Source of the DNA: Candidatus Jordarchaeales archaeon
GTDB taxonomy: Archaea > Asgardarchaeota > Jordiarchaeia > Jordiarchaeales > Freyrarchaeaceae
Length of the DNA: 32,000 nt
Reading direction: 5' to 3'
Assembly (NCBI GenBank): GCA_038889235.1
Contig: JAWAHN010000003.1
Location: 173,703 to 205,702 of the forward strand
Numbering within the stretch: the first letter of the stretch is position 1; each line of letters opens with the position of its first letter. Shown here piece after piece: positions 2,907-7,205 of this stretch. Both the position numbers and the translations under genes were made by a program. Under the pieces are notes generated by a model. That model saw only the letters and a list, made by a program, of their open reading frames with translations, was not told the DNA's origin and ran no database searches.

Positions 2907-3365
2907 TTGGTGAATATAAACCCGTTGTATAACGCGATATGTTTCGGAACTTTGCTGAGCGCCCTAGATAAGATAGGGGTCTCCCTGCCTATAGTGGCGA
3001 GGCAGACGTCGCAGCTGCTGGAGCCCCTCATGAGGGACTTTCTTAAGGGACTCATAGGAGCTAACGATCTGCCGAAAAACCTTTGCGAGGTTAAGGAAGT
3101 TATAGAAAAGCTTGTGGACGTCGGCGGGATAGGGGAGACGAAAGTGGAAGTCTCGGGTAACACGCTTACCGTTAGCGGCAAAGACTGCATGTACATCGAC
3201 ATGTCGCGCTTCGGCAGAACCCTGGGATACCCAACTTGCCCCATGTGCGTTATCTCACTGATGCTCATAGCGTTAATAAACGTCCCCAAGATAGGCGTAG
3301 TCACCGATACAGTAGTAGAGACAAACGACAACGAGTGCAAAATCAAAATAACGGTAGAAGAGTAA
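2907..3365 (+). CDS. Small Cys-containing V4R/hydrocarbon-binding-like protein
   Basis: 152-aa ORF after an AT-rich promoter region. Helical N-terminus, then ..LTVSGKDCMY..PTCPMC..NECKIKI, a layout resembling V4R/HNOB-type domains. Confidence 0.55.
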   Translation: MVNINPLYNAICFGTLLSALDKIGVSLPIVARQTSQLLEPLMRDFLKGLIGANDLPKNLCEVKEVIEKLVDVGGIGETKVEVSGNTLTVSGKDCMYIDMSRFGRTLGYPTCPMCVISLMLIALINVPKIGVVTDTVVETNDNECKIKITVEE

Positions 3366-3908
3366 CAACACAACACCCCCAAGAGTGACGTAAGAAATGA
3401 CAGCGCTATTAAAACGCTAAACAAGCTCTCAAAAGCAAAGCTGGAAGGTAACAGTTGACATAACGAGCAACCTGCTGCTTAAACTTTTCAAACTCTTATT
3501 CTTTCTTGTCCTGGTTCATTTGTCACCCCTCCTGTCTGGGCCCCGCCCGGATTTGGTATCCAAGCTGCACGTGAACATTACCTCAGATTTCTCTGAAAGC
3601 TTATTCTTAGGGGAAACACTAGTTAGAAAGGCAGGCGCCCCGTCAGTCTTCACAAGAGAAGTTGCAGCAGGTTTTTCCAAGGAAGGGGGGCCTAAAGCCG
3701 GCAGTGCTAAAAAACATTTACATGGACGTTCAAATGAATCAGCATTATAAAAGCTGATTAGCAACTAAGACTGAAGTTAACGAGAGCCACGTCAACACCT
3801 TCAAAGTTCCGGCCGGGAACAAGGCAGTGACGCAACCACCAGTCTAGTTGAGCCCAGACAAACACCAACACGCACATGCTTCACCTTAAACATAATAAAA
3901 TAAAGCTC

Positions 3909-3992
3909 ATAGAGCACGTAACGGTAACCGGGAGGCTTAAACCACTCACCGAAGAAGATTACATGAAGCTGGCAAGACTGTGTCTTCTGTAA
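3909..3992 (+). pseudogene. Possible N-terminal remnant of an IS200/IS605 TnpB-related protein
   Basis: (ATA)EHVTVTGRLKPLTEEDYMKLARLCLL* resembles the N-termini of crenarchaeal TnpB-related proteins as I recall them. No canonical start; ends in a stop. Confidence 0.3.
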
Positions 3993-4483
3993 AAGTTTTT
4001 AAGTTGTTTTAGTTACTATAAGTATCCTGTTTCGATGACGGCGAGATAGCCATCAGGAGCGGGAGGAGAAGTCTATCCCTCGAGGCGTCCCTGTGGTGCC
4101 CGTCGATGTAGCCCCAAATGACCCTGCAACAAGTGAGCAGGAGATAAGGGAGAAGCCCGTGGCGACAATACCCATGGTATTCAAAAATACCTAAACAAAC
4201 CCAAATAAACAACACGAGCAACCACACACAGCATCAGCATACCTCACAACACTCAAGTACATTCAAAACAGAAAAAAAAACATGTACAACTCCAGAGCAT
4301 ACAAACAGCCTAAATGAATAAAAAAGAAAACAGCCCAACTCCCACGGAAGCCCAACTCCCAACTCCAAACACCCGGAAACCTCCAACCCACCTCACGCCA
4401 ACAAACCCCCAACAATACACCCAACTAACTCGCGAAGAAAACAAAAAGCCAGCAGACCCCACCTGTCACTCCTAACTAAACAA

Positions 4484-4499
4484 TAGGCTGTCGAAAATT
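4484..4499 (+). repeat. Left terminal inverted repeat
   Basis: TAGGCTGTCGAAAATT, pairs with 5587-5603. Confidence 0.75.
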
Positions 4500-4528
4500 A
4501 ATATTTATTTTCTAAACTAGTTTAATTT

Positions 4529-5574
4529 GTGGAAGTCGTTCAATCTGTGAAGTTCAAATATGAATCCAATGATGTTGTAAAGAAGCTTCTTGAGGACTTT
4601 AGAGGAATGGTGAACTTATGCTCAGATATAGCTATCAAGAACAAAGCTACTTCTCTGGCGAAAATTCACAGTCTAGCCTATCAGGAGCTTAAGAAAAGGT
4701 TCGATTACCATTCTCAATACTATATCTCTGCTATAAGAGTAGCTCAATCAATACTGAAGTCGTGGAAAAAGAGGGGAAAAGAGCCAACTTTAAGGAAGCC
4801 AGTAATAAGGTTTAGCCCATTACTGACAAAACTTGAGGGTGAGAGACTTAGGATAGCTTTGAGGCCGAGAGAGTTCATCTATATAAACCTTGTTGTTGGA
4901 GATTACCAACGCAAGTTTCTAGGCAAACCTCATGGAATGATAACTATGACTGAAGACTACATCATAATTCCCTTTAAGACTGAGGTTGAAGAACTGGATT
5001 GTGATAAAGCAGTAGCCCTCGACATCAATGAGACAAATATCACAGCCGTCACCTCCGATGGAAAGATTCATGTTTTTGATACAAAAGAAGTGAAAAGGCT
5101 GCATGATTGCTACTTTGAGATAAGGAGGGAAATCCAAAGCAAGTATAAGGGAAACGCTAAGAAAAGAGCCTTAATAAAGTATCGTGGAAGGGAGAAGAGG
5201 CGGTCAGGGATTTCCTACATAAGCTGACAAGAAAAATCGTTGATATTTTCAAGGGGTACACCATCATAATGGAGGACTTGAGGAACCTGAGGGGATCCAT
5301 TGATTATGAAAGAAAGCTCAACAGAAGACTGCATTCATGGAACTTCAGGCAAACTCAATTCTTCATAGACTACAAGGCTAAGCTCAATTGATCCAAGGTC
5401 ATCTACATGAACCCAAGAGGGACAAGCAAGAATTGTTCAGTATATGGGGGAACAATATCCCCGAAAGACAGGACTTGCCCCAAATGCGGAATAAATAGGC
5501 ATGTAAACGCCTGTTTAAACATGCTCAAGATGTGGGGAGCGCAGGGTCCCCCGACACGCCTCTCGATGACATGA
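4529..5574 (+). pseudogene. tnpB: TnpB (IS200/IS605 OrfB) RNA-guided nuclease, inactivated
   Basis: RuvC-I ALDINE. A 1-nt loss at ~5203 shifts the frame, which continues VRDFLHKLTRKIV..IIMEDL (RuvC-II)..RRLHSWNF..YKAKLN* (TGA 5389-5391)..NPRGTSKNCSVY..CPKC..NRHVNACLN. Zn-finger Cys->Tyr and RuvC-III Asp->His. Right-end-like GAGGAAGTCA at 5577-5586. Confidence 0.92.
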
Positions 5575-5586
5575 GAGAGGAAGTCA

Positions 5587-5603
5587 AATTTTTCGACACC
5601 CTG
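5587..5603 (-). repeat. Right terminal inverted repeat
   Basis: AATTTTTCGACACCCTG, directly after the tnpB right-end motif and before the TAAACAA duplication. Confidence 0.75.
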
Positions 5604-5749
5604 TAAACAACAAAAACACACAGGAAACGCAAAAGCCCAACGAAGAACGCACCCGCAACAACAAACAATGAACACTTTTACTATAAAAAATAAAAGGAGG
5701 AACACAAAAAACAACAGAACTAAGAAGCCTTAAAAAGGAGGGGGAACCA

Positions 5750-7205
5750 ACGAGAAAAACAGTAACACTACTACTCTCACTCCTACTGCTCCTAGCACCA
5801 CTCACAGCAACACTCACCCCAACACCAACAACACCAATAATACCAACACAATCACAACAAGCACCCAAACAATTTGCACCGCTCGAAGGTGTCACCTTCT
5901 ATCTTCACCCATCCTACAACGAAACAGGCATCCACGCATATACAACACAGAATGCTACATCATACCTCGGCATCAACTGTACCGGCATCCAAAACCTTAC
6001 GCAAGCCGTAGTCAGAGTAGAAACAAGACCGTTCGAAGCAAATATCGAGGTACAGCTTAATGTCGCAAATGAAACATACTGCAATGATACTATTAATACG
6101 ATCATCAGCCAGCTAAACGTGACTCTCCAGAGAATCGGGATAACCATAAAGGAAGAAACTTCTCGTAATATAAGCCCTACGGGCACCTTTGGAATCTGCA
6201 CCCTTAAACTAGATGGAAATCCACACAGTCTAAGTCAACTGGTTCCTGAAAATACGTTTGCACGCAAAATAGTAGAGACGAAAATAGTAGAGACGTACGA
6301 TGACGCTGAAATTGAGATAACAGACACGCATAAACCGGGTCAGGTACCGGGTGTATTCGGTCTCTGTGATGTTCTTGTTGACGTAAGTGGGGTCATCATG
6401 AGGACGGACACGTACAACTACAACTTCTCGGTGAGAAAAGCTCTAGGCATCACTGAACAGCAAATCGTTGTGAACGTAACACCAACAATAATCACCATAT
6501 GCTATCCCGGAAACTTAACTGATTGTTATCCTGGAACCAATACCACCTCAGTTGAGGTGATAATAGAAAATTCTAGCGTCTCATGGAGGATAAATGCGAG
6601 TGTTACGTTTGATGACATTTTTGTTGCTTTCACTTATGTGCCGAGTTACATGGAGGGGTATATGGAGTGGAACTTGACTGCTGGGGAACACCGCCTGCGT
6701 TTCGATACCGGCTTGATGAATATTACTGTCTGTTAATGTGAGTGGTCGGGTGAGGCTTAGTGTTTGTTCTATGCTTGAGAATCCTGGTGGTGGGTTGCCT
6801 TCTGGCTTGGGCTTCTTGGGGAGGTTCATCGAAATCACGCTTGATGATGAAAGTGCTCTGGTTAGCTTGACGCTTGTCTTTAGTTACAGTGATGATGAGG
6901 TTGCGAGGGCTGGGCTGGATGAGTCCACTTTGGCTGTCTACTACTGGGATGAGTCGAGTGGGAGTTGGGTTAGGATTGAGGGTAGTGTGGTTGACACTGT
7001 GGCTAACACGGTTACTGTCACTGTTGACCATATTACTTACTTTGCGATAGTAGGGAGCACGGGGAGAGAAGAGGCTTCATGGTTGCCGTTTGTAGTGTTT
7101 TTGGCTCGTCCGGCGAGTACCGCTTTAGTCGTAGCTGGTGTTGGGGTTGTAGTCCTGCTAGTGTCTATGGTTGCCGCTTTGATCCTTCGGAGAAGGAGAA
7201 CGTAA
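5750..7205 (+). pseudogene. Secreted, membrane-anchored surface glycoprotein (~485 aa), split by one frameshift at ~6731; start codon ACG
   Basis: Frame open from 5687. SD AAGGAGGGGG (5735-5744), then ACG AGA AAA = (M)RKTVTLLLSLLLLLAPLTA signal peptide, a Pro/Thr linker and at least 15 N-x-S/T sequons. ORF 6738-7205 continues it (NITV|VNVSGRVRL) with YYWDE..G.W....VD...NTVTV.VDH..YFAI, a TM helix and RRRRT. Confidence 0.78.
6266..6295 (+). repeat. Perfect 15-nt in-frame tandem duplication (KIVET KIVET)
   Basis: aaaatagtagagacg twice. Confidence 0.95.

Follow-up and report, generated by a model that had tools for sequence, protein, structure and literature searches.

A solo tnpB pseudogene of an archaeon in a unit with terminal inverted repeats that was inserted with a 7-bp target duplication

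Branches of TnpB associated with DDE transposases (DDE-1 to DDE-6) all possess inverted terminal repeats, and solo TnpBs that share the ends of these branches have been taken as moved in trans (Altae-Tran et al. 2023, PNAS, PMC10691335). The DDE-associated and the solo TnpBs are restated in a 2026 review, which names ISL2, IS630, and IS1031 as DDE partner families and describes that in Fanzor transposons the duplicated target adjoins the guide region (PMC13565253). Fanzors resemble the element described here as TnpB homologues inside transposons of other superfamilies with terminal inverted repeats (TIRs) and target site duplications (TSDs), but they occur in eukaryotes and eukaryotic viruses, the proteins are much larger, and their partner transposases have been identified. 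Another group for comparison is the IS1341-type elements of IS200/IS605, which share with the element described here a solo tnpB of the guided_TnpB family, a subterminal right-end hairpin followed by a short tail, a structured 3' RNA region, and a low copy number; unlike this element, they have neither TIRs nor a duplication. To our knowledge, neither the Y1 route of IS200/IS605 nor the serine recombinase route of IS607 leaves a duplication. Inverted ends may be present in the ISAMJ1 elements of M. jannaschii.

The element resides in the window, the whole stretch of 32,000 nucleotides analyzed from a Candidatus Jordarchaeales archaeon. It is a unit of 1,120 bp at positions 4484 to 5603 with imperfect TIRs of 16 and 17 bp and TAAACAA at either side. 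On the plus strand, the left TSD copy (4477 to 4483) is followed by the left TIR TAGGCTGTCGAAAATT (4484 to 4499), an end also present in the loci L001, L002, L170, L171, and G003:C24, by an A/T-rich leader (4500 to 4528), which is conserved in L001 and probably contains the promoter, and by the tnpB pseudogene (4529 to 5574), as revealed by comparison with the intact relative P0001 of L001. The right TIR AATTTTTCGACACCCTG (5587 to 5603), also on the plus strand, is composed of the 3' arm of a hairpin and the 6-nt tail ACCCTG and abuts the right TSD copy (5604 to 5610). The TIR consensus of the element is YAGGSTGTCGAAA, with YAGGSTGTCGAAA...TTTCGACASCCTR as the paired-end pattern. Its 9-mer core, TGTCGAAAA, occurs twice in the 32-kb window, inverted and both times at the ends of the element, compared to 0.28 expected occurrences. 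Evaluation of the duplication needs to consider that TAAACAA is locally frequent, with five occurrences between 3418 and 5610, because the flanks contain about 80% A+C; given this composition, the chance of a match of seven out of seven bases at fixed positions is about 5e-4. The 2.14-Mb genome is nearly repeat-free, and neither a second copy of the element nor further copies of its TIRs occur in it.

The corresponding empty site is present in the same genus. G003:C40 aligns with 88 to 89% identity to window positions 4383 to 4486 and 5604 to 6900, with an overlap of the two pieces by 10 nt, and its joined flanks read ...cccaacTAAACAAcagaaaca..., containing one TAAACAA, no TIRs, and no element. 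Therefore, positions 4484 to 5603 entered whole and duplicated 7 bp, which shows that the unit was inserted as a single piece into an A/C-rich intergenic tract. The TIRs and the 7-bp TSD around tnpB had been read in the earlier note; the letters are as claimed there, and the orthologous locus of the congener possesses a single TAAACAA and not two copies around a missing element. A second empty site, that of the G003:C24 element, was sought in the host genome, whose intergenic DNA proved too diverged for an alignment of this site.

The surroundings of the insertion have features of their own. Positions 4226 to 4483 plus 5604 to 5900, about 555 nt in total, form a tract that contains 76 to 80% A+C on the plus strand and no open frame and is 88 to 89% conserved in the congener G003, and the element sits in the middle of this tract. 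The gene downstream, at about 5750 to 6736, specifies a protein with a signal peptide and a Thr/Pro-rich linker, in which N-x-S/T sequons are numerous. The gene starts with ATG in G003 (MRKTVTLLL); the respective codon in the window, about 140 nt downstream from the insertion, is ACG, which leaves the gene there without a canonical start. Upstream of the tract, positions 3975 to 4225 are one of four copies of about 250 nt in the host genome with 71 to 77% identity, the others being located at C1:242278-242523 (minus strand), C1:487395-487631 (plus strand), and C1:152909-153143 (minus strand). A TATA-like box and several GATGA motifs are found in this repeat, its A/C-rich tail is conserved, and Rfam contained no match to it.

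Independent copies share the boundaries of the unit. The metagenome contig L001 encodes P0001, an intact protein of 348 aa with 92% amino acid identity to the tnpB of the window. Its positions 2954 to 4079 are 88.6% identical to the window at the nucleotide level, with homology exactly from TIR to TIR and unrelated flanks, and its 7-bp TSD, CAATATT, differs from the TAAACAA of the window. Of two more distant relatives, L118 has the ends aAGGGTGTTGAA...TTCAACACCCTa and the TSD GTTTTAT, and G003:C24, a broken copy with about 45% amino acid identity, is flanked by GAACAA. Whether other copies share the TIRs, a question raised by the earlier note, is answered by these three, each of which has its own duplication. 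About half of the clade (L002, L170, L171, L116, and L176) possesses good TIRs, perfect over 16 nt in L002, and no duplication; the duplication status of L042 was ambiguous, and L003 has lost its left end. In both closest copies, the window and L001, TAAC is located directly 5' of the duplicated 7-mer, a weak hint (n = 2) at a TAM or a target preference.

With these ends, the element can be compared with the known groups. IS200/IS605 elements have no TIRs and no duplication, whereas the TIRs of the window measure 16/17 bp and those of L171 reach 29 bp, perfectly matched, and the 7-bp TSD is proven by the empty site and was also found in L001 and L118. Different from IS607, the unit contains no neighbor gene, and TIRs and duplication are both present. 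It shares TIRs and a duplication with MITEs but is 1.12 kb long, gene-bearing, and single-copy. The DDE-associated and solo TnpBs are similar: as in these, tnpB is located between TIRs at both ends of the unit, the 3' end of the gene is close to the transposon end (29 nt between the stop at 5574 and 5603, within the limit of 250 bp), and mobilization in trans is inferred (PMC10691335). Unlike the DDE-associated TnpBs, these TIRs come without a known DDE gene or autonomous element in the searched genomes, the ends look as if derived from an IS605-like right-end hairpin, and the hosts are thermophilic archaea. The DDE partner families ISL2, IS630, and IS1031 make duplications of 2 to 3 bp, not 7 bp.

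Thermophilic archaea (Bathyarchaeia, Archaeoglobaceae, Methanodesulfokora, Terraquivivens, and Nezhaarchaeota) commonly carry relatives with 40 to 50% identity. The solo-tnpB clade of the window also belongs to thermophilic archaea, mostly Bathyarchaeia, and no close relatives were found in viral contigs. All TIR-bearing elements formed one clade in a maximum-likelihood tree (SH-aLRT 99). A recurring neighbor gene beside tnpB, including a tnpA of any kind, was not found in about 135 loci with flanks of 2 to 2.5 kb, which makes the whole lineage one of solo tnpBs. The large sister group, “group A,” has homologous ends, ..AGGGTTcGTCAG CAGTTTCTGAATAGTTAAC.. on the left and ..GTTAACTATCCGACAACGG on the right. 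In 32 independent loci of group A, which served as the internal control for the duplication calling, no duplication was found at any boundary offset, suggesting that the insertion mode changed within the lineage. Y1 genes were present in two of five group A host genomes but adjoined other, distant tnpBs.

Several other observations were made at these loci. L002 and L170, which come from one hydrocarbon metagenome, are distinct members of the clade without duplications and have similar right flanks directly outside the right TIR, AGATAGAC.. and AGATAAGT.., which may reflect a shared target preference or an element that extends farther. The outer 8 to 11 nt of the left end are missing in L064 (about 208 to 217 and 1410 to 1419) and L174 (about 418 to 427 and 1680 to 1689), which are bordered by the exact 10-bp direct repeats TTATTATCAG and CGCTCAACAC; such repeats were found at two of 40 independent right ends, and control 8-mers at three right-flank offsets matched in two of 120 cases. 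L022 (about 1500 to 1530; G003:C2, about position 5061) contains the solo left-end remnant aAGGCTGTCGAAAAATTA, followed by a GTGGAAG-like sequence, with neither tnpB nor a right TIR nearby. P0034, a distant variant with a RuvC-III His, is encoded at L177 (1537 to 2727) and also at L178 to L180, the same locus in four samples, and directly downstream is a phage-integrase-type tyrosine recombinase that has a zinc ribbon. Such an enzyme would leave the differing 7-mers of near-identical copies unexplained.

The tnpB of the window is broken. Its frame 1 is open until about position 5202, where a 1-nt deletion shifts the frame, an in-frame TGA follows at 5389 to 5391, and a zinc-finger Cys is replaced by Tyr at 5443 to 5445 (CxxY for CxxC). 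An intact open reading frame and a C4 zinc finger are thus missing in the window copy, and P0001 is intact. From its sequence, the window copy cannot make TnpB any more, and the element is dead. P0001 scored 132.8 bits with the NCBIfam model guided_TnpB (NF040570; cut-off, 100) and was also above the cut-off with PF07282 and PF01385 (OrfB_IS605 and Cas12f1-like_TNB), which by these profile scores makes it a bona fide TnpB; the N-terminal piece of the window copy alone scored under the cut-off. The catalytic residues on the plus strand are the RuvC-I Asp (ALDIN, 5021 to 5023), the RuvC-II Glu (MEDL, 5272 to 5274), and a RuvC-III His (CAT, 5500 to 5502) replacing the Asp. The third residue of the D-E-D triad is hence a His (NRHVNA) in the window, P0001, L002, L003, and P0004 to P0006, and this xRHVNAC variant was found in the subclade of the window plus many related cluster representatives. 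TnpB variants with a D-to-H exchange in RuvC-III have been described as possibly active (RIIIr-4 branch, Altae-Tran et al. 2023, PMC10691335); the His for Asp is shared with this branch, but the window clade retains the zinc finger. The canonical DRD is kept in L118 and G003:C24, which both have duplications, and the His variant and the duplication are therefore unlinked.

The right end of the element is structured. The 3' region at 5520 to 5603 (plus strand) is a candidate omegaRNA scaffold with two covarying stems, both with compensatory pairs, followed by a terminal hairpin (GTCAAA-TT-TTTCGAC, 5583 to 5597, plus strand), and had no match in Rfam. One mismatch weakens the stem of this hairpin in the window and L001, and the stem is perfect or longer in the relatives: 6 bp in L002 (arms GUCGUA and UACGAC), 7 bp in L003 (arms GUCGAAA and UUUCGAC), 10 bp in L042, 11 bp including one G-U pair in L171, and 17 bp in L118. 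The layout of the right end, GGAAG, hairpin, and a tail of 6 to 9 nt ending with CCTR, was the same in 10 of 10 clade members; the sequences of the hairpin arms differ between these members, and the left TIR changes in step. Left-end hairpins were weak and not conserved in the copies compared, and the conservation between the window and L001 ends at the end of the TIR.

The earlier note had taken the right TIR as the guide. Since this TIR coincides with the 3' arm and the tail of a hairpin kept by compensatory changes in the relatives, it is more likely a part of the structure or the scaffold than a guide. A scaffold that ends where the element ends and is followed by a variable guide would fit the observed pattern, and a guide made of the TIR would not. 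As an alternative, the 5' arm of the hairpin may be merely a third copy of a transposase-binding site. An internal TTAAT, which the earlier note had assumed as TAM, is not conserved among the copies.

To search for empty copies, the TIR pattern AGGSTGTCGWAAAA was scanned across 400 genomes of the phylum, with the reversed pattern as control. It yielded 23 matches. An inverted partner together with a tnpB was present only at the window element and G003:C24, one match was the solo left-end remnant in G003:C2, and the other 20 were unpaired singletons, no commoner than the reversed-pattern control matches listed; as paired ends, the TIR pattern thus occurred in the 400 genomes only with tnpB. Neither empty palindromic copies nor gene-less TIR pairs were found in the host genome or the 400 phylum genomes, so that a comparison of filled and empty copies, as suggested before, found no empty copy to be counted.

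A mobilizing partner was sought in the host genome, which is 95% complete, and beyond. IS1595, ISC1217 (PF04693), Y1 (PF01797), IS4/5, rve, and IS630-type domains were not found in the host genome. In the host genus, IS4/5 and IS630-type domains were absent, as was rve save one match in a sister genus (G004), and no partner with PF12762, PF04693, PF01609, PF00665, or PF13358 was found in the host genome or genus. None of the TIR-pattern matches in the 400 genomes came with a DDE transposase in cis or belonged to an autonomous element with these ends, and the neighbor genes of L001 contained no transposase domains. ISC1217-type elements have TAG ends and make duplications of 6 to 8 bp. A partner of this type was rejected, with PF04693 being absent from the host genome and 251 phylum genomes, a weak negative result because the named controls were undetected at this threshold.

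The unit is probably a non-autonomous TIR transposon that carries tnpB and is moved in trans by a staggered-cutting transposase. The target would be cut with a stagger of 7 nt and filled in afterwards, as in cut-and-paste transposition, by an enzyme provided in trans that binds the TIRs and would be most likely of the DDE type. The right TIR may at the same time form the final hairpin and the tail in the omegaRNA scaffold, and the guide would start past the element, being composed of the duplicated 7-mer and the right flank, as in other TnpB/Fanzor systems. Insertion by such a staggered cut would exclude the Y1 (IS200/IS605) and serine recombinase (IS607) routes, neither of which is known to make a duplication. 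Of the proposal in the earlier note that tnpB is cargo of a non-autonomous TIR/TSD element moved by a DDE enzyme, the element itself agrees with the empty site, the other 7-bp TSDs, and the homology stopping at the TIRs; the DDE partner was not found. Evidence against the TIR transposon includes, besides this missing partner, the rarity of the TIR pattern, the missing duplication in about half of the clade, and a right end with subterminal hairpin and short tail that looks like that of IS200/IS605. 

Two other explanations assume that tnpB arrived by an IS605-type route. An IS605-type tnpB element might have been nested in a palindromic MITE of about 35 bp, with the right TIR as a guide that allows homing into empty MITE copies, as the earlier note had proposed. 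The TIRs are indeed real, perfect over 16 nt in L002, and the TIR follows directly after GAAGTC. However, the empty site in G003:C40 is free of a palindrome, no empty palindrome or second TIR pair to home into was found in the host genome or the 400 phylum genomes, the right TIR pairs within a hairpin that has compensatory changes, and the proposed internal TAM is not conserved. The T-run also differs in length between the two TIRs of the window, so that such a guide would be shifted against the left end. Finally, a deep clade and the sister group have homologous TIR-like ends, which co-diverge with TnpB and are therefore ancestral to the element. This nesting is extremely unlikely. Alternatively, the unit could be an ordinary IS200/IS605 element of the IS1341 type, moved by a Y1 TnpA in trans, with the flanking repeats as effects of the target sequence or microhomology. 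The IS200/IS605-like hairpin and tail, the duplication-free sister group, and the TAAC 5' of the 7-mer in both closest copies, similar to a TnpA target or a TAM, agree with this explanation. It is nevertheless very improbable indeed: the empty site in G003:C40 shows a true duplication, the 7-mers differ between copies 88.6% identical and are therefore not part of the element, and the host genome is without a Y1 gene. Y1 transposition is, as far as we know, not known to duplicate target DNA.

The remaining explanations dispense with a classical partner. In a self-mobilization, no separate transposase would be needed, and TnpB or a host activity of a kind not known so far would cut the target in a staggered manner and join the element. 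No partner appeared in cis in the about 135 loci or in the genus, the lineage is all solo tnpB, and TnpB is an enzyme with an RNase H fold, here with a RuvC-III His; TnpB and Cas12 enzymes make staggered cuts. On the other hand, we know of no strand-transfer activity of TnpB, and MAG assemblies often lose multicopy insertion sequences. The elements with DRD, L118 and G003:C24, also duplicate their target, so that the His variant is not linked to this event, and solo TnpBs mobilized in trans with DDE-type ends are documented (PMC10691335); self-mobilization is decidedly unlikely. A related possibility, considered as very unlikely, is that the clade switched from a duplication-free, IS605-like mobility to one duplicating 7 bp, with TIRs that originated from the arm of the right-end hairpin, no transposase recognizable in the vicinity, and TnpB, often with a RuvC-III His, or a new class of enzymes making the staggered cut of the target and joining the element.

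As a tnpB inside a TIR transposon, the arrangement is of a known kind, already published (PMC10691335). Particular to this case are the proof by an empty site, the 7-bp duplication, TIRs derived from an IS605-like right-end hairpin, a duplication-free sister group, and the fact that no partner was found. For annotation, the lesson is not to mistake the TIR for a guide. As a case verified by an empty site, the element means that not every “solo” tnpB gene of archaea is a relic of IS200/IS605 and that some of these genes sit in units inserting like classical TIR transposons. Because no duplication is left by the sister elements, whose ends are homologous, this lineage could show a TnpB/omegaRNA module changing its means of transport, and how a guide that begins in the duplicated target still serves homing.
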